From NCBI GenBank assembly GCA_947259735.1, contig CAMYNN010000009.1, forward strand, positions 17,856 through 81,855: a stretch of DNA of 64,000 nt. The letters run 5' to 3'. Position numbers and translations under genes: made by a program. Origin of the DNA: Thermodesulfovibrionia bacterium (GTDB taxonomy: Bacteria; Nitrospirota; Thermodesulfovibrionia; UBA6902). The notes under the pieces are model-generated. The model was given only the letters and a program-made list of their open reading frames with translations. It made no database searches and had not been told where the DNA came from. Below, one piece after another: positions 155 to 32,598 of the stretch (its first letter is position 1; each line of letters starts with the position of its first letter).

Positions 155-250
155 CAGGCAAGAGGCAAGAGGCTAGGGGCAAGAGGCTAGGGGCTAGAGG
201 CTAGGGGCGATAGGCACTGCTTCCCATTGCCCATGGCCTCTCGCCTCTAT
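155..250. repeat. Hairpin-forming intergenic repeat, copy A: octamer tandem array (GGCAAGAG/GCTAGGGG units) + spacer + inverted complement (CCCATGGCCTCTCGCCTCT)
   Basis: Direct reading: ggcaagaggcaagaggctaggggcaagaggctaggggctagaggctaggggcgataggc, then a 14-nt spacer, then cccatggcctctcgcctct, which is the reverse complement of the GGCGAGAGG/GGCCATGGG-type units. Shares a GGCCATGGGC core and gaggcgagagg with the copy at 10613-10780. Overlaps the last ~19 codons of the response-regulator CDS. Confidence 0.6.
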
Positions 251-895
251 AACGTATTCGGGATTTGAAGGGTCTTTTTCTATTTTTTGCCTCAGGTGCT
301 GAATATGCACGTCGATTACCCGGCTCCATGAGTAAATCTTTGAACCCTTCCAGATATTTTTTCTGATAGTCTCTCTGCTCACGACTTCACCGCGGTGATC
401 TACAAAAAAACAGAGAAGGCTGTATTCCTTCGGTGTGAGGTCTACGGTCTCCCCGGAAACAGTAACAATACGTTTTTTGTAATCAACATGAAGTTTCCCC
501 ACTGTGACTTTCCCCTTAAGAGCAGGAGCGGTTACCCTGCGGAGGCAGGCCTTTATCCTTGCCACCAGTTCAAGGGTCTCGAAAGGTTTTACAACGTAAT
601 CGTCTGCCCCGCTTTCAAGGCCGAATACCTTGTCCGAAACCTTGTCTTTTGCTGTAAGCATGATAACAGGGATTTCCGGCATCTCCTTTCTGAGAGAGCG
701 GCAAATTTCCATTCCATCTCCATCAGGAAGCATTACATCAAGAATAATCAGGTCAGGAACACTTTTTGTCAGCAATTCCCGGGCATCAGTCCAGTTTTCT
801 GAAGTAATAACTTCATAATGATGAAGCTCGAGGTTTGCCTTGACCACTTTCAATATGTCCCTGTCATCGTCAACGGCAAGTATCCTGTTACCCAT
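194..895 (-). CDS. OmpR/PhoB-family response regulator (receiver + winged-helix DNA-binding domain)
   Basis: 233-aa ORF. N-terminal receiver motifs (ILAVDDDRDIL...DLIILDVMLPDGDG...IPVIMLTAKD) and a C-terminal trans_reg_C-like region (VVKPFETLELVARIKACLRR ... KEYSLLCFFVDHRGEVVSRETI). The extreme C-terminus (WEAVPIAPSL) is encoded by the adjacent repeat element. Confidence 0.9.
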   Translation of the reverse strand: MGNRILAVDDDRDILKVVKANLELHHYEVITSENWTDARELLTKSVPDLIILDVMLPDGDGMEICRSLRKEMPEIPVIMLTAKDKVSDKVFGLESGADDYVVKPFETLELVARIKACLRRVTAPALKGKVTVGKLHVDYKKRIVTVSGETVDLTPKEYSLLCFFVDHRGEVVSRETIRKNIWKGSKIYSWSRVIDVHIQHLRQKIEKDPSNPEYVIEARGHGQWEAVPIAPSL

Positions 896-3088: not shown

Positions 3089-5863
3089 ATGAAAGTGTCA
3101 AGAAGGGACTTTCTGAAAACCACGGCAGCCGTTAGTGCTGCAGCCGCTGTCGGCATGGCTGTACCCGATGAATTAAAGGCAGTCGCAAAGGAAACAGAGG
3201 CCGGATGGCGATGGGACAAAGCCGTATGCAGGTTCTGCGGCACCGGATGCGGCATCATGGTTGCGACAAAGAATGACATGATCGTAGCGGTCAAGGGCGA
3301 TCCCCTTGCACCGGTCAATATGGGATTGAACTGTATTAAGGGCTACTTCAATGCCAAGATCATGTACGGTGCGGACAGGCTCTCAGAACCCCTGCTCAGG
3401 GTGAATGAAAAAGGTGCGTTTGATAAGAAGGGCAAGTTCAAACCCATTACATGGGAGCGGGCCTTTGATGAAATGTCAAAGCAGTTCAAGAAATACTACA
3501 CCGAATTGGGGCCGACAGGCGTATCTGTATTCGGTTCAGGTCAATATACGATCATGGAAGGGGTAGCAGCTGTCAAGTTAATGAAAGCCGGATTACGAAG
3601 CAATCATATCGATCCGAACGCCCGTCACTGCATGGCAAGCGCGGTCGTCGGTTTTATCCAGACATTCGGCATTGATGAACCGGCAGGTAATTACGACGAT
3701 ATGCACTATGCCGATTCAGTAGTCCTCTGGGGGGCCAACATGTCAGAGATGCATCCAGTTCTCTGGTCCAAGGTAATGGACAGAAAGCTGAGCAAACCCG
3801 ACCGGGTAAAAATTGTCAACCTCTCCACCTATACAAACAGGTGCTCTGACCTTGCTGATCTCGAAATAATTTTCAAGCCGAACACCGACCTCGCCATCCT
3901 CAATTACATCGCACGTGAAATAGTCTATAACCGTCCCGAAGCTATTGACTGGGACTTTGTCAATCAAAATTGCATTTTCGCGACCGGACCGGTAGATATC
4001 GGATACGGTATGAGAGGTCAGGTCGATCACCCAAAATTTAAAGCACGTGAAAAAGATACAGTGGCCCGTGAGGTTTCCAAAGTTATTACAAAAGATGAGG
4101 CCCACGCTATGAGTTCCCTGGGATTTAAGCCCGGCCAGAAAATGGAAATGAAAAACACAAAGAAACCGGTCAAGCACTGGGCAATCAGCTTTGAGGACTT
4201 TAAAAAGGGCCTCGAACCTTATACCCTGGATTTTGTGGCGCAGCTCGCAAAGGGTGACGCCGATGAGTCCATTGATGATTTCAAGAAGAAGCTTGTGCAG
4301 CTCGTGGATTATTATGCGGCAAAGGACAGAAAGGCCGTCAGTTTCTGGACCATGGGCTTTAACCAGCATGTCCGCGGTTCCTGGGTAAATGAGCAGATGT
4401 ATATGGTCCACCTTCTTCTCGGCAAACAGGCTCAGCCGGGCAACGGCGCCTTCAGTCTCACCGGCCAGCCGAGCGCCTGCGGAACTGCGAGAGAGGTCGG
4501 CACATTTGCTCACCGGTTACCTGCAGACATGGTCGTGACAAACCCGAAACACAGGGCAAAGTCGGAAAAGCTGTGGAAGCTTCCCGAAGGAACTCTCAAC
4601 CCCGTCGTTGGTTCACATTACACGAAAATCATGAGGGACCTTGAAGACGGAAAGATCAAGTGGACATGGGTACAGGTCAATAACCCCTGGCAGAACACTG
4701 CCAATATGAGTCACTGGATCAAAGCGGCACGGGAGATGGATAACTTCATTGTTGTTTCGGAGGTATACCCCGGAATATCGGCAAAGGTAGCTGACCTGAT
4801 CCTGCCCACTGCAATGATATTTGAAAAGTGGGGAGCATACGGAAACGCAGAGCGGAGGACCCAGCACTGGAAACAGCAGGTGACCCCGATAGGCAAGTCA
4901 ATGTCCGATACGTGGCAGACAGTGGAGTTCGCAAAGAGATTCACCCTTGCCGAAGTCTGGAAGGAACAGAAAATTAATGACAAGGTTACGCTGCCGAATG
5001 TCCTGGCCAAAGCAAAGGCAATGGGATATAAAGAAACAGACACCCTGTTCGATGTGCTCTTTGCAAATAAGGAGGCACGGTCATATAAGTGGCCCGACCC
5101 GGTCGGAAAAGGGTTCATCAATTCTGAAGCAGGAGGAGATAAGCGGGATGTAGAAGGTTTCAAAGGTTATGGTTTCTTCATTCAGAAATATCTCTGGGAA
5201 GATTACAGAAAGTTCGGCCTTGGCAACGGACACGACCTTGCCGATTTTGACACCTATCACAAGGTAAGGGGATTAAAATGGCCCGTCGTGAACGGTAAAG
5301 AGACAGAGTGGAGGTTCAATGCTGATTATGATCCCTACGCAAAGGCGGCCAACCACGGCAAGTTCGCTTTTTACGGCAAAGCTCTCAAGGAAATACCACA
5401 GGGCGATCTTTTCGGCCCGACAAAAGGAAAAGAAAAGGTAAAGCTGCCCAATAAGGCAAAGATATTCCTGAGGCATTATGCAGAAGCGGCTGAGATCCCG
5501 AATAAGGAATACCCGCTCTGGCTCTGCACCGGAAGAGTACTCGAGCACTGGCACAGCGGAACAATGACAATGCGCGTACCTGAACTGTACCGTGCAGTCC
5601 CTGAGGCACTCTGCTCTATGAATCCGAAAGATGCGAAAGACAATGGATTGAAAGACGGCCAGCTTGTCTGGATTGAATCAAGAAGGGGAAAAATCAAGTC
5701 AAGGATTGAAACGAGAGGAAGGAACAATCCTCCCCGCGGCCTGATTTTCGTGCCCTGGTTTGATGAGCGCGTCCTGATCAATAAAGTAACCCTTGATGCG
5801 ACGTGTCCGATGTCAAAAGAAACGGACTTCAAGAAATGCGCGGTGAAGATTTATAAAGCATAA
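3089..5863 (+). CDS. napA: Periplasmic nitrate reductase catalytic subunit NapA (Mo-bisMGD, Tat-exported)
   Basis: 924 aa. Twin-arginine signal [15 protein letters not shown]. 4Fe-4S motif [12 protein letters not shown], and the NapA-diagnostic stretch [17 protein letters not shown]...KIMYGADRL. Good RBS aaaaaggagg. Length matches Epsilon/Delta-type NapA. Confidence 0.95.
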
Positions 5864-6858: not shown

Positions 6859-7698
6859 ATGGCATGCCATGCCCCTACAGGACCTTATGAAATGAGAAAA
6901 TATAAATACCTCATATCAAGAAGAAGCACACAAATCGTAATCCTCTTCCTGTTCTTCTCCGGAAACGCATACGGCTGGCAGATTTTGAGGGGCAACCTGA
7001 GCTCGGCAAAGGTGTTTGGTGCAATTCCTCTGTCAGATCCCTTTGCAGTGCTGCAGAGTTTGTCTGCAGGGGCTTCTCCTGCCACAGATGCCATAATTGG
7101 AGCTCTGATTATATTCCTCATCTATGCTCTCCTCGGCGGCAGGATATTCTGCGCCTGGGTATGTCCTTTAAATATGGTCACAGACCTTGCCAATAAAATC
7201 AGAACGATGTGGAACATGAATTCGACACAGAAATCATGGGAGATGAAACGGGAAGTACGCTACTGGGTAATAGCCTTATCCTTGGTGCTATCGGCCATTC
7301 TCGGAGTTGCAGCCTTTGAATGGATAAGCCCCATAGGAGCGCTGCACAGAGGAATCATATACGGACTCGGGGCCGGATGGGCTTTTGTCATGGTCGTCTT
7401 TTTATTTGATCTGTTTGCCGTGAAAAACGGATTTTGCGGACACCTCTGCCCTCTTGGCGGTTTTTATTCCCTCATCGGCCGTTTCGGTTTTTTGCGTATC
7501 GGTTATGACAAGGATAAATGCAGTTCCTGTATGAAGTGTATTGATATCTGTCCTGAAAAACAGGTCCTGCACATGGTAGGGAAACAGAGCGGGGCCGTCC
7601 TTTCCGGAGAATGTATAAATTGCGGGAGATGCATTGAAGTATGTGACGAAGATGCAGTGAGGTTCAGCAGCATCTATCCAAAAAATATCAAATCATAA
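6859..7698 (+). CDS. napH: Membrane quinol dehydrogenase subunit NapH (polytopic, two C-terminal [4Fe-4S] motifs)
   Basis: 279 aa. Several hydrophobic helices plus CxxC motifs (CAWVCP, CGHLCP) and C-terminal CSSCMKCIDICP / CINCGRCIEVC. Gene order napG-napH. Start codon uncertain (MRKYKYL at 6892 is an alternative). Confidence 0.85.
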   Translation: MACHAPTGPYEMRKYKYLISRRSTQIVILFLFFSGNAYGWQILRGNLSSAKVFGAIPLSDPFAVLQSLSAGASPATDAIIGALIIFLIYALLGGRIFCAWVCPLNMVTDLANKIRTMWNMNSTQKSWEMKREVRYWVIALSLVLSAILGVAAFEWISPIGALHRGIIYGLGAGWAFVMVVFLFDLFAVKNGFCGHLCPLGGFYSLIGRFGFLRIGYDKDKCSSCMKCIDICPEKQVLHMVGKQSGAVLSGECINCGRCIEVCDEDAVRFSSIYPKNIKS

Positions 7699-10179: not shown

Positions 10180-10482
10180 TTAAGAAGGTCTCAGTTTATG
10201 GATAAGTTTTATATAGTTGTCCGGCTGTTCCAGGATCTCAACACCCATGCTGTCATAATATCCGTTTGACTTCGCTATCCTTCTCACTCTCACAGGTACA
10301 TGTAATATCTCATCTTTTAATGGAAGGGTTATATCAAACTGGAGTTCAAGCGGAAAGTTTATCTTCCCCGATTTAATATACATTCCCTTTTCCGAGAGGT
10401 TTTCCACTATGCCGAAGTAATCTATGTTAAAGCAATGAAATTCAAGGTTTGCAGCTATTCTCTGAGAGTCTCTTTTTTCCAT
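10180..10482 (-). CDS. PilZ-domain protein (c-di-GMP binding)
   Basis: 100 aa. RxxxR-like SQRIAANLE and N/DxSxxG motif ENLSEKGMYI typical of PilZ. Confidence 0.7.
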   Translation of the reverse strand: MEKRDSQRIAANLEFHCFNIDYFGIVENLSEKGMYIKSGKINFPLELQFDITLPLKDEILHVPVRVRRIAKSNGYYDSMGVEILEQPDNYIKLIHKLRPS

Positions 10483-10612
10483 TTCAAATTCATGAAACGA
10501 GCAAAATTAACTAGATATAAGAATTATTATCAGAATTTGCTTCAATTGTCAAATTTAAAATCATTATAAATATTATAAAAATTGTTAATAGATTTTTTAG
10601 TGAGGAAAAAAA

Positions 10613-10780
10613 AGGCCAGGGGCAATAGGCAATAGGCAATAGGCAATAGGCAATAGGCAATAGGCAATAGGCAATAGGCAATAGGCAATAGGCAATAGGC
10701 CAGAGGCGAGAGGCGAGAGGGGAATAACCAGATACTATTGCATATCTTTTCCTCGCCCATGGCCTATTGCCCCTTGCCTG
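10613..10780. repeat. Hairpin-forming intergenic repeat, copy B: (GGCAATAG)x~11 + (GGCGAGAG)x2 array with terminal inverted repeats around a GGCCATGGGC core; T-runs on both sides (bidirectional terminator-like)
   Basis: Direct reading: aaggccaggg(gcaatagg)n ccagaggcgagaggcgagagggg ...cctcgcccatggcctattgccccttgcctgtttttt. The left end aggccaggggcaatagg is complementary to the right end cctattgccccttgcct. Preceded by gaggaaaaaaaa on the plus strand, which gives a U-tract for the minus-strand transcript. Lies between the gspE-like stop and the PilZ start. Confidence 0.7.
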
Positions 10781-10784
10781 TTTT

Positions 10785-12620
10785 TTAAATTATTCCCGTA
10801 ACCCTGATGATTTCATCAACAGTTGTTATACCCTTCAACAGTTTTTCCACGGCGCCTTCCTTAAGCGTGCGAAGACCTTCTTTTTTTGAGATCTGCTTTA
10901 TCATATCGGGAGTGGCTTTTTCTTCAATTGCTTCCCGTATCTTCTCTGAAATTTCCATGGCCTCAAAAACACCTGTTCTTCCCAGGTAGCCTGTTCCTCT
11001 GCATTGCGGACATCCTTTCCCTGAGGGAACTTCATATTTCCCGGCTGTGTCATAACTCAGACCAAGCATCCTGCAGTCATCTTCAGACAGGGGATACATC
11101 TCAGCGCAATGACTGCACACCTTTCTAATGAGTCTCTGGGCAACTACTCCCGACAGTATTGAGTTGATGAGAAAAGGCTGTATTCCGAGGTCAATCAGCC
11201 GTGTAACGGTACTCGGGGCATCATTGGTGTGCAGTGTTGACATCACGAGATGCCCCGTGAGAGCCGCCTGCATTGCATTCGTCGCAGTCTCGTAATCCCG
11301 TATTTCACCGACCATGATAACATCCGGGTCCTGCCGGAGAATTGTCCGGAGACTGCTCGCGAATGTAGTTCCCAGCTGGGGCTGTATTGATATCTGGTTG
11401 AATTCTTCATACACCATCTCAACAGGGTCTTCTATAGTAGTGAGATTTACATCAGGTGTTGAAAGCGTCTTGAGTGCAGAATAAAGAGTTGTTGTTTTCC
11501 CGCTGCCTGTCGGTCCAGTTACGAGAATAAGACCGTAAGGAGCAGAAATCAATGATCTGAAAATGTTTAATTCTCTTTGTGACATTCCAAGTTCATCAAC
11601 TTGCTGCATCAGGATAGCCGGATCAAATATCCTCATGACAATCTTTTCTCCAAAGGCAACGGGGAGAGTGGAAACACGAAGTTCTATTTCTTTTCCATCC
11701 TGGACAGTCTTGATCCTGCCATCCTGGGGTCTTCTTTTTTCAGCAATATCCATCCGTGAAAGTGTTTTGATCCGTGAAGCAAATGCGGGGAATACCGCCT
11801 TCGGCATTTTGTGAATTGTATGGAGAACACCGTCAATCCTGAAACGCACAAGGCAGTGTTCCCTCTTTGGTTCAATGTGTATGTCCGATGCCCTCTGGGA
11901 ATATGCATAGCGCAGGAGATACTCAACGGCATTGATTATGTGCTGATCGTTTGCCCCGAGTTCCTGGACCGATTTCAGCTTTACATACTGTTCCAGATTA
12001 CCGAGGTCATTCTGAGACGAGAGTTCGTCCTGGGCGGCCGTTATGGATAATTGAAAGCCGTAGAACTCGGTAATAATCTTCATTATGTCCGACCGTGACG
12101 ATACAACTATCTCTATATCATATCCCTTCGACTGTTTAATTCTGTCTATTCCTTCACGATCAAAGGGGTTTGATGTTGCAATGACCAGAGTGTTTCCGGC
12201 AACGCTGATCGGCACAAGCTCGTGCCGCAGCGCATAGGGCTTTGAAATGATTTTAGTCACCACATCAGAATCAAGCTTCAGGGGGTCTATTTTCAGATAG
12301 GGCAGTCCAAAGTGCTTCGCAATCTCCTTCACGATGATATCTTCCGTAATATTCTGACCATTCCCGTTGACCGGCAGGTGCATGGATTCAATAATGTCTA
12401 TTATTGAAATATCAGAATGACGGATCGTCCCCGATGGAACACCTGCACCCTTTGCCTCCCTTGACTTAAGGATTCTCATACGGAACATGTCTTCCTTCGA
12501 CAAAATGTCCCCGACCTGCCTTTCCGATAAAAGGCCTGCCGATAAAAGTATATTCAACACGTTTTCTTTGGTTTTCCTGCTCATAGTGACAACATTATTC
12601 TTTCTGCCTGAACAAGGCAT
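10785..12620 (-). CDS. GspE/PilB/MshE-family secretion ATPase with N-terminal T2SSE_N (MshEN-like) domain
   Basis: 611 aa. Walker [10 protein letters not shown], Asp box, His box ([14 protein letters not shown]), tetracysteine CSHC...[14 protein letters not shown], and an N-terminal GspII_E_N-like domain. Orphan: no adjacent gspF or secretin. Confidence 0.9.
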
Positions 12621-17346: not shown

Positions 17347-17541
17347 TTATGACCTCTTTCGGGTTTCTGCAGATAATTATACAGGAATGGCTGAATATAC
17401 ATTCTTAGCATCCGTCTGCAATCAGCCGTCGGCCGTCAGCGACCAGCTTTCAGCATAAGACTGACAGGGCTGCCGTGGCTGAGGCAGTGTCCCATTAGCA
17501 CTCATATATTTTTGCTCTGAGGTAGTACGGAAGGTTCGCTA

Positions 17542-17739
17542 AAAATGAACGTCGAACGTCCAACATCCAACGTTCAACATCGAATTAAAAAAATAAACTT
17601 CCAATACCGAATATTCAATACTTGTTTTTTCACCCAGCCGTTTTAATAAGCGAAGCAAAAATCTAAATTAATTCTTCTTTTCCTTCATTTTTCCATTCAA
17701 CATTCAATGTTGGACGTTGGACGTTCGATGTTCATTTTT
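17542..17739. repeat. Large imperfect inverted repeat (arms ~44 bp built from NCAACRT heptamer tandem repeats) flanking a ~108-bp AT-rich loop; MITE-like or structured regulatory element
   Basis: Left arm aaaatgaacgtcgaacgtccaacatccaacgttcaacatcgaat (17542-17585). Right arm attcaacattcaatgttggacgttggacgttcgatgttcatttt (17694-17737). The outer ~30 bp are complementary with 2 mismatches. Lies in the divergent promoter region between the transporter and the dsrE-like gene. Confidence 0.7.
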
Positions 17740-17911: not shown

Positions 17912-18268
17912 ATGAAACGTCTAAAAGTACTGTTTCACATTAATGAAATCGAAAGATGGGACACAGCCCTCGGAAATATTATCAATCTCCTGAAGGATGT
18001 GGGAGAAGACGCGGTCGATGCGGTGGTCCTCGGGAATGGTCCTTCTATTAATGCCTATGGTAATGAGACTAAACTGTCGGTAATGAAAGGCCTCTCCGAA
18101 AGAGGTGTCAGATTTCTTGCCTGCAGAAATTCTCTGCGAAAAATGTGCTCATCAGGTGATTCCTGTATTGCAGAAGATGCCCTCTCTTCATTCATAGAGG
18201 TCGTTCCTGCCGGTATTACTGCGATAATCAGAATTCAGTCCGATGGTTATGCCTATGTCAAGCCCTAG
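17912..18268 (+). CDS. DsrE/DsrF-like family protein (DrsE_2-type sulfur-relay-like fold)
   Basis: 118 aa from the ATG at 17912 (RBS ggagag). The longer ORF from 17801 is probably an artefactual extension. MKRLKVLFHINEIERW ... VVLGNGPSINAY ... RFLACRNSL, with a conserved Cys in the ACRNS context. Confidence 0.65.
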   Translation: MKRLKVLFHINEIERWDTALGNIINLLKDVGEDAVDAVVLGNGPSINAYGNETKLSVMKGLSERGVRFLACRNSLRKMCSSGDSCIAEDALSSFIEVVPAGITAIIRIQSDGYAYVKP

Positions 18269-18277
18269 AGAATGTCT

Positions 18278-18360
18278 GGGGTCAAACCTTCAATATTCAT
18301 TTATAAAATACTTTATGAATAATAGTAATCTTGAAAATTGAATTATGAAGGTTTGACCCC
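18278..18360. terminator. Bidirectional hairpin between convergent genes (15-bp perfect stem GGGGTCAAACCTTCA / TGAAGGTTTGACCCC, AT-rich loop with a nested inverted repeat)
   Basis: Read directly. Lies between the dsrE-like stop (18268) and the VKOR-Trx stop (18376). Confidence 0.6.
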
Positions 18361-18375
18361 ATGGATTCTCTCCCG

Positions 18376-23387: not shown

Positions 23388-23663
23388 ATGGCCGCCAAGA
23401 AAAAAGCCGCTGCAAAAAAGAAAAAGACTACCGCTAAGAAGAAAACTACTGCGAAGAAGAAAACTACTGCGAAAAAGAAAACTACTGCTAAGAAGAAAAC
23501 TGCGAAGAAGAAGACTACTGCGAAAAAGAAAACTACCGCTAAGAAGAAAACTACTGCTAAGAAGAAAACTGCTGCGAAAAAGAAAACTACCGCTAAAAAG
23601 AAAACTACTGCTAAGAAGAAGACTGCAAAAAAGAAAACTGCTGCGAAAAAGAGAAGAAGATAG
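23388..23663 (+). CDS. Lysine-rich histone H1-like / Hc1-like nucleoid protein composed of (KKTTAKK)n repeats
   Basis: 91 aa. MAAKKKAAAKKKKTTAKKKTTAKKK... encoded by a 21-nt tandem DNA repeat. RBS aagggggtg. Followed by a clear intrinsic terminator. Antisense ORFs of 132 and 134 aa over the same repeat are artefacts. Confidence 0.65.
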   Translation: MAAKKKAAAKKKKTTAKKKTTAKKKTTAKKKTTAKKKTAKKKTTAKKKTTAKKKTTAKKKTAAKKKTTAKKKTTAKKKTAKKKTAAKKRRR

Positions 23664-32436: not shown

Positions 32437-32598
32437 TTCATATAACGTAATGGATAGAACTTTGTTTCAATCACCAATAAATAAATAATGACCAATAATG
32501 TGATAACAATATTCATGACTTCAAAGTTTATTGATACTTCGGTCATGGGACATGGAAATTTATTCGTAATTCGTAATTCGTAATTTTCTTTTAATAGT

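Follow-up and report, generated by a model that had tools for sequence, protein, structure and literature searches.

What are the two repeat-built hairpins that stand at 157-247 (copy A) and 10606-10787 (copy B) of a 64,000-nucleotide stretch of a Thermodesulfovibrionia bacterium genome (assembly GCA_947259735.1, contig CAMYNN010000009.1, positions 17,856 to 81,855; this whole stretch is referred to below as the window), and what might they do for the genes that they adjoin? A sequence-only reading of this DNA took them for the two members of a family of octamer-based hairpin elements, possibly hypermutable or mobile, with a pattern outside the standard repeat families. The analysis described here places them in a class of bacterial heptamer microsatellites that has already been described, and extends this class to the Nitrospirota (Thermodesulfovibrionia). 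The explanation that we favor, with moderate confidence, is that A and B are slippage-prone, convergent inverted pairs of GGCNANN heptamer arrays that follow stop codons and act as terminator or 3'-end stem-loops.

The repeat period is 7 at both loci. Tandem Repeats Finder reports about 8.7 copies of a GGCAAGA/GGCTAGG-type unit with this period at 156-216 in copy A. In copy B it reports (GGCAATA)11.4 at 10621-10700, with 100% matches and a score of 160, as well as (AGGCGAG)3.4 at 10697-10720. A self-similarity scan with shifts of 4-14 nt finds arrays in the window at period 7, in six segments that belong to four loci, and at its multiple 14; the sole other period is 9, in a coding lysine-rich repeat. 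The 8-mers proposed earlier overlap one another by one base. Units at A and B have the form GGCNANN (GGCAATA, GGCGAGA, GGCAAGA, GGCTAGG and similar), and GGCCATGGGC, once regarded as the core of the family, is a single variant unit, GGCCATG, plus the GGC of the next unit. Exact matches to GGCCATGGGC in the window are confined to copies A and B. With one mismatch allowed, the window shows no clear enrichment (7 matches found versus 3.3 expected, a number reached in 5 of 100 shuffles), and across 3 Mb of fetched DNA the sequence occurs in a heptamer context in the A and B orthologues and in one unrelated array (L071).

Each copy consists of two opposed arrays of unequal length. In copy A, nine G-rich heptamers on the plus strand (157-219) make up the arm distal to a response-regulator gene: GGCAAGA twice, then GGCTAGG, GGCAAGA, GGCTAGG, GGCTAGA, GGCTAGG, GGCGATA and GGCACTG. 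A 5-nt loop (220-224) separates them from a short arm of three inverted units, CATTGCC, CATGGCC and TCTCGCC (225-245), which contains GCCCATGGCC at 229-238 and is followed by TC up to position 247. The long arm of copy B (10614-10725, plus strand) holds 16 units, namely GGCCAGG, eleven GGCAATA (10621-10697), GGCCAGA, two GGCGAGA and GGGGAAT. Beyond a 25-nt loop (AACCAGATACTATTGCATATCTTTT, 10726-10750) lie four inverted units, CCTCGCC, CATGGCC, TATTGCC and CCTTGCC (10751-10778, or to 10780 with a TG), that form the short, gspE-proximal arm. The whole is bracketed on the plus strand by an A8 run (AAAAAAAA, 10606-10613) and a T6 run (10781-10786).

Both loci do contain the tandem arrays, arranged as the imperfect palindrome with a single expanded arm that was noted earlier, and these features lie far beyond chance; the short arms hold three and four units in place of the one or two assigned to them. 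Every fold of A and B, in the window and in a close relative, was compared with 200 shuffles, and each beat all 200. The minus-strand fold of copy A has a free energy of -43.5 kcal/mol (z -2.9), and the folds of copy B have -67.9 and -67.8 kcal/mol (z -3.95 and -4.6), so that z scores in the window run from -2.9 to -4.6. Those in the relative are -4.9 and -5.2, the latter belonging to its intact copy A (-51.6 kcal/mol).

The hairpins are placed at the ends of genes. Copy B starts inside the gspE stop codon, as TTA at 10785-10787 is TAA on the minus strand and is overlapped by the T6 run. In the close relative, hairpin A starts 5 nt past the stop codon of a normal 227-aa response regulator.

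This relative, assembly GCA_947258725.1 (contig CAMYJE010000003.1, loci L241 and L327), matches the window at 97-98% DNA identity over 28 kb and carries A, B and a third heptamer element, C, at the same positions. Its copy B has six GGCAATA units, one GGCAAGA and three GGCGAGA, versus eleven GGCAATA, one GGCCAGA and two GGCGAGA in the window, a net difference of 28 nt or four units. The difference is restricted to the long arm. Short arm and loop are 100% identical, and BLAST aligns 10715-10790 to both L241 and L327 at 100% over 76 nt. At copy A the number of units is equal in the two strains, with two unit substitutions. Of the four largest indels in the 28 kb, two are the 28-nt event at B and a 46-nt deletion at A. 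The sequence-only reading had suspected slipped-strand hypermutability and had proposed that unit number be compared between strains; the suspicion is borne out at copy B. A small open reading frame that would start from an ATG inside GGCCATGG, with a purine-rich stretch upstream at both A and B, was considered as a candidate and rejected, as the 28-nt difference at B shifts its frame between strains.

How might such elements change? The arrays probably grow and shrink through replication slippage in a 7-nt register, and the two arms probably keep like unit types via template switching within the hairpin. Slippage would have expanded the gene-distal arm, with the gene-proximal arm staying short and stable. 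Since every register of the long arm is open to pairing with the short arm, changes in unit number would be tolerated. On the gspE sense strand, such a change would alter the size of the loop alone and possibly the efficiency of termination. The hairpins are at the same time local hotspots of structural change, and at copy A a deletion with one end in the stem has cut the regulator gene short and joined it to its hairpin.

The architecture of A and B recurs in a described group of repeats. Xanthomonas genomes carry about 186 GGGAATC-type heptamer repeats each, 89-93% of them intergenic and on average 28 nt from the upstream open reading frame (PMC4692102, Rehm et al. 2015). Among these, 70-75 convergent inverted pairs are able to form stem-loops, and their length and sequence vary between species at the same sites; the study left their function unresolved (PMC4692102). 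Many bacteria have more heptamer repeats than expected, for which polymerase slippage has been proposed as an explanation (PMC4692102). Convergent inverted heptamer pairs just after open reading frames are thus on record in both Xanthomonas and Nostoc (PMC4692102), contrary to the earlier view that the pattern in the window was a non-standard one. The Xanthomonas/Nostoc repeats, GGGAATC and GGGGA(C/T)T, resemble A and B in being tandem arrays of 7-nt units that begin G-rich (GGGANTN as compared with GGCNANN). Like A and B, they are mostly intergenic near the end of an upstream reading frame, are often arranged as convergent stem-loop pairs, keep the same sites in relatives while varying in length and sequence, and show no mobility. 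At A and B, the convergent G-rich arrays stand on opposite strands, 5-25 nt apart, and start 0-5 nt past a stop codon. The units of the known repeats carry G3-G4 tracts, whereas those of A and B have GG, with GGG or GGGG at some unit junctions only. Three-tetrad G-quadruplexes, the focus of the earlier study (PMC4692102), are therefore not expected here. The present examples also differ in their Nitrospirota host, in the strong expansion of one arm and in their setting of three or four loci in 64 kb. Apart from G-quadruplex potential, A and B agree with the Xanthomonas-type class in all respects tested.

The STRR sequences of heterocystous cyanobacteria have units CCCCAGT, TTGGTCA and CAACAGT. 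These units and the phylum differ from those of A and B, which are an analogue and not a strict member of the STRR family. Both have heptanucleotides repeated head to tail in non-coding DNA (for STRR, at many loci), and in both period 7 is favored over other periods. Three tandem heptanucleotides have been described in Calothrix PCC 7601, according to a secondary citation (in PMC4692102). Another comparison is offered by the TAACTGA direct repeats of Beggiatoaceae, Cyanobacteria and Bacteroidetes, which occur upstream of start codons (PMC4679880, MacGregor 2015). These are also intergenic and patchy across phyla, and differ from A and B in being nearly always direct (one inverted among 170) and upstream of starts, whereas A and B are inverted pairs after stops and are built from other units.

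Three further identities were tried and rejected. On inspection, CRISPR and REP/BIME elements differ from A and B in architecture, which here consists of tandem 7-mers. REP/BIME elements are imperfect palindromes of about 20-40 nt that share a conserved family sequence and are associated with a RAYT transposase. Binding sites for OmpR- or SARP-type regulators are heptamers at 11-bp spacing, and the units of A and B are contiguous 7-mers.

Copies A and B would fold in RNA into long GC-rich stems that lead into a U run, and their most likely role is thus that of an intrinsic terminator or a protective 3'-end stem-loop for the upstream gene. In copy B, the A8 run becomes U8 on the minus strand, directly after the stem in the gspE transcript, and the minimum-energy fold of gspE-sense RNA joins the short arm to the U8-adjacent units in both strains. 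With U6 on the opposite strand, B would also terminate transcription in that direction. A putative promoter, a consensus match of 11/12 (TTGACA, 18 nt, AATAAT) at 10523-10552 on the minus strand, lies between hairpin B and a PilZ-domain gene (10180-10482, minus strand). By its flanking A8 and T6 runs, its start inside the gspE stop codon and this promoter-like site for the next gene downstream, copy B looks like the bidirectional terminator that had been proposed for it. GC-rich stem, A and T run flanks, position after a stop and position before a promoter-like site are all shared with known bidirectional intrinsic terminators.

Several points weigh against this assignment of function, or against the details on which it is built. 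Canonical intrinsic terminators have stems of 5-14 bp and loops of 3-8 nt, whereas the stem predicted here consists of about 30 bp of repeats and, in one register or another, encloses between 25 and about 110 nt. A stem and U run after the stop are present at B, and the short compact loop (3-8 nt) is found at neither A nor B. A simple terminator consensus scan calls neither copy, their loops being longer than 8 nt. A 16-unit long arm gives the gspE-sense RNA a loop of about 110 nt, ill suited to a canonical terminator, and the U tract of copy A is weak (CUUUCAU). The authors of the Xanthomonas/Nostoc study found no regulatory role for heptamers (PMC4692102). Element C lies between divergent genes and is therefore not their terminator; given this example, an architecture like that of A and B does not by itself imply termination. 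In addition, both genomes appear to be metagenome assemblies, and assembly could have distorted the number of units counted in perfect arrays.

The difference in unit number between near-identical strains could instead mean that the arrays are tunable (contingency) switches. Unit number would then alter termination and read-through, or the structure of a 5' untranslated region (UTR), and vary the expression of a downstream gene, such as the PilZ-domain gene after B, within a population. On gspE-sense RNA the long arm does lie between the short arm and the U run, such that unit number sets loop size and the competing registers, and intergenic repeats of Haemophilus control expression via UTR structure (PMC12721329). 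However, the promoter-like site for the PilZ gene is located downstream of B, and this gene need not rely on read-through. Two alleles are all that has been seen, and at copy A the strains do not differ in unit number. Phase variation was also judged unlikely for such repeats in the Xanthomonas/Nostoc study (PMC4692102). We regard switching of this kind as unlikely, and prefer to view the change at B as slippage within a terminator or 3'-end stem-loop that tolerates it.

Copy A illustrates a different form of instability. The OmpR-family response-regulator gene (194-895, minus strand) encodes 233 aa and neighbors nap (periplasmic nitrate reductase) genes. Compared with the close relative, the window has lost 46 nt at 248-249, a segment that reads ACTGTACCTGGCGCAGGGTACAGGTTTGCAGACTAAAAATAGGCAC on the gene sense strand. 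The deletion takes the last 11 codons of the gene, its stop codon and AAATAGGCAC, which forms the base of the hairpin A stem (5' arm). As a consequence, the regulator reading frame runs on into hairpin A and stops in the sixth unit of the long arm, where TAG lies at 194-196. Residues 217-233 (EARGHGQWEAVPIAPSL) are encoded by the hairpin, and the protein ends in ...IEARGHGQWEAVPIAPSL. NCBI lists an identical 233-aa protein on a 104,284-nt contig, presumably from the source assembly. The sequence-only reading was correct that the coding sequence ends inside A. It had supposed that the element was absorbed into the gene and supplied about 10 residues; the comparison shows a deletion in place of any absorption by insertion, and 17 residues. 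Inspection of the sequences at the junction reveals no microhomology, and no long direct repeat that would suggest mis-assembly is present.

The altered end replaces a conserved one. All 12 of the 12 aligned regulator orthologues end in ...GAGY(R/M)F.. at 226-227 aa, mostly as ...ITVPGAGYRFAD; the homologues carry the names Nitrospirae, Nitrospirota or Thermodesulfovibrionia. The regulator in the window lacks the conserved C-terminal ...TVPGAGYRFAD, and its match to Pfam Trans_reg_C ends at residue 222, at profile position 74 of 77. Where the orthologues have the conserved GAG, the protein in the window still reads G-x-G, which follows from the GGC and GGG of successive repeat units. The 233-aa regulator may be impaired.

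More distant relatives bear on the age and origin of the arrays. Where the regulator is 78-82% identical, no heptamer array follows the gene. A short ordinary hairpin is found downstream of the regulator in one such locus (L324), and in another (L326) the regulator is followed by 40 nt ending in GGCCTGCCTTTTTT and then by conserved downstream sequence. In a sister species with GspE at 83% identity, represented by nine contigs, a hairpin with a 7-bp stem and no array follows gspE. L333, too, is among the relatives that have a short ordinary hairpin in place of the array. From these comparisons, arrays A and B appear to be of recent origin.

The same distribution is compatible with copies of a small dispersed element, similar to MITE or REP sequences, in which a module of about 40 nt (A5-YAGGCA, two units and GGCCATGGGC) was inserted after stop codons and the arrays grew later. 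When the gene-proximal arms of A and B are aligned in a single register, starting at the A run and ending with the GGCCATG unit, 31 of 40 positions agree. On a 910-nt contig with a regulator at 90% identity, the A orthologue retains this arm (AGGCAAGAGGCCATGGGCAATGGGAAGC), though the sequence beyond it is divergent until the contig ends. However, the GGCNANN constraint alone gives an estimated chance of about 0.06-0.25 that one unit among four aligned is shared, and the arm alignment is thus suggestive only. The absence of arrays from distant relatives is ambiguous, since their intergenic regions differ altogether. In BLAST comparisons the heptamer motif is all that A and B have in common, and neither the window nor about 40 kb of the relative yields a further copy. 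Searches with A, with the short arm and loop of B, and with C return orthologous sites only, in about 100 kb searched for this species. Neither target-site duplications nor direct repeats flank A, B or C, no transposase or recombinase is encoded among the neighboring genes, and both strains carry all three elements at identical sites. We consider an origin by insertion improbable. Mobility of A and B, which had been raised as a possibility, has no evidence in its favor among these sequences, and the recent arrays are better viewed as slippage products at the ends of genes.

Element C (17541-17739) expands the set of heptamer features in the window and shows a third type of change. Inverted arms of 52 nt (17541-17592 and 17688-17739), made of NNAACRT heptamers (AACGTCC-type), enclose about 95 nt between a minus-strand SBF-family gene and a plus-strand DsrE-like gene that diverge from it. 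Its fold has a z score of -7.8. The corresponding segment of the relative (L327, 9740-9939) aligns at 63% in direct orientation and at 86% when inverted, and BLAST matches the two at 91.5% over 201 nt on opposite strands. This far better inverted alignment indicates that the element is inverted between its heptamer arms in one strain relative to the other. The flanks are about 99-100% identical between strains, but in the loop divergence amounts to about 9%, several times that of the local background.

Invertons and small hairpin-loop inversions are similar to element C in that a segment between inverted repeats, here of 52 nt, is found in both orientations. They differ in that the two orientations of C were observed in different strains and not within one population, in the divergence of the loop, and in the lack at C of a nearby invertase gene and of a called promoter in the segment. 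No recombinase or invertase is found among the genes neighboring C. For 17585-17700, the prediction tool calls no promoter-like site, and a weak one (TTGAAT-17-TATTTT, 8/12) can be read by eye. A degenerate 7-nt periodicity (CAGCCGT CGGCCGT CAGCGAC CAGCTTT CAGCATA, 17424-17458) lies about 80 nt upstream of C and is 100% kept in the relative. Rfam finds no family at the gathering threshold in the whole window, and its sub-threshold matches are to generic hairpins (microRNA) on element C only.

The fourth heptamer locus is a direct (ATTCGTA)3.4 array at 32562-32585 on the plus strand, which has no inverted partner and no predicted structure. The gene cluster around it encodes parts of a type II secretion system (T2SS; secretin, T2SSE and T2SSF). 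The array begins about 125 nt past the end of the T2SSE gene (32436), and it precedes the T2SSF start codon (32599) by 14 nt. This placement resembles the typical position of the TAACTGA repeats (PMC4679880). Of the two-copy family first proposed, both loci are real, and element C and this array must be added as further heptamer features. The four loci (A, B, C and 32562-32585) are all intergenic in the relative, and the density of period-7 arrays in the window is 9.4 per 100 kb.

Heptamer arrays of other composition were observed in two relatives. In L322 (regulator 82% identical), a GAGTTAA/GAGTTAT array with an inverted AACTCAA arm (6937-7046) lies between two ferredoxin-type genes of a molybdopterin-oxidoreductase operon and overlaps the called start of the second. 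In L330 (DsrE 85% identical), a direct (NACGGAY)7 array at 4382-4432 comes after the stop codon of DsrE and extends into the called end of a convergent MOSC-domain gene.

Such variety of setting could indicate that the arrays have no function of their own. They might arise neutrally, from a bias toward 7-nt slippage in terminator hairpins or other intergenic DNA that was already there, or else be sites for a protein that reads heptamers in single strands. Arrays with unrelated units do occur in other settings: between divergent genes (C), just ahead of a start codon (32562-32585) and within an operon (L322). Heptamer arrays are also found in many phyla, and cold-shock proteins can bind heptamer direct repeats (PMC4679880). 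Constraint beyond pure drift is suggested, however, by the position of A and B at stop codons, by the lengthening of the B stem through its A and U runs and by a strong polarity of inverted pairs. Among scoreable heptamer inverted pairs from all fetched loci (L001-L332), a sample with sampling bias, the 5' arm is G-rich in 44 and C-rich in 3. Element C is one exception to this G-rich-first polarity. With these observations in hand we give little credence to either version of this reading, and continue to favor a 3'-end role for A and B.

The GGCAATA unit itself is widespread. A genome scan for (GGCAATA)3GGC yielded at least 120 loci, and among the matches listed, arrays of at least three GGCAATA units have hosts in the Cyanobacteria, Bacteroidota, Planctomycetota, Nitrospirota, Geobacteraceae, Syntrophobacter, Rhizobium, Acidimicrobiia and Chloroflexota. 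None of the listed (GGCAATA)3GGC loci comes from the source genome, as BLAST against the window finds no match outside the low-complexity repeat. About 10% of the listed GGCAATA arrays have inverted TATTGCC units within 200 nt, downstream in 13 cases and upstream in 1. As a background control, 847 kb of unrelated contigs were taken from a metagenome scan with GspE (at most 58% identity, with conserved ATPase motifs dominating the matches). Among the periods that are not multiples of 3, 7 is the most frequent here, at 3.3 arrays per 100 kb versus 0.35-1.2 for the others, and several of the period-7 arrays are inverted pairs.

A scan of viral contigs for (GGCNANN)5 proved too unspecific to define a family, and the matches listed are unrelated heptamer arrays of every unit type. 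One contig from the viral collection (L107, 65% G+C) contains at about 937-1030 the series (GGCGATA)4 GGCGAGA, a 22-nt loop and CCTATCGCC TGTCGCC TATCGCC TATCGCC, a hairpin with an architecture like that of A and B in a very different genome.

The 44 to 3 polarity, together with the recurrence of GGCAATA from Cyanobacteria to Nitrospirota and Bacteroidota, raises a broader and quite speculative idea, to which we assign a low probability. Heptamer inverted pairs may be products of one directional process with a 7-nt register that is common to bacterial phyla, and may serve as register-tolerant, evolvable terminators that remodel their surroundings. If so, these pairs would account for a four-unit change, a regulator-truncating deletion and a 200-bp intergenic inversion in near-identical strains, and the inversion of element C might redirect a weak promoter between two divergent genes.

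Two other repeats in the window are of different kinds. An inverted repeat at 18267-18371, with 41-nt arms that are 80% complementary, a 23-nt loop and no heptamer periodicity, begins at the DsrE-like stop codon and looks like an ordinary long terminator-type hairpin. Both strains (23418-23652 in the window, 15612-15846 in L327) also have a repeat with 18-nt and 69-nt periods and units of the type AAGAAGAAAACTACTGCT, which would encode a putative lysine-rich KKKTTA-type repeat.

What appeared to be an octamer hairpin family in this Thermodesulfovibrionia genome is thus reclassified into a heptameric repeat class that is already described and still poorly understood. Comparison of the two strains displays the effects that such elements can have over short times: a change of unit number in one arm, a deletion that truncates a regulator and the inversion of a related element. 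For annotation, the C-terminus of the 233-aa regulator should be seen as repeat-derived and as lacking the conserved GAGYRF end. The G-rich-first polarity of inverted pairs and the recurrence of GGCAATA across phyla bear on the more general question of why bacteria favor a period of 7.

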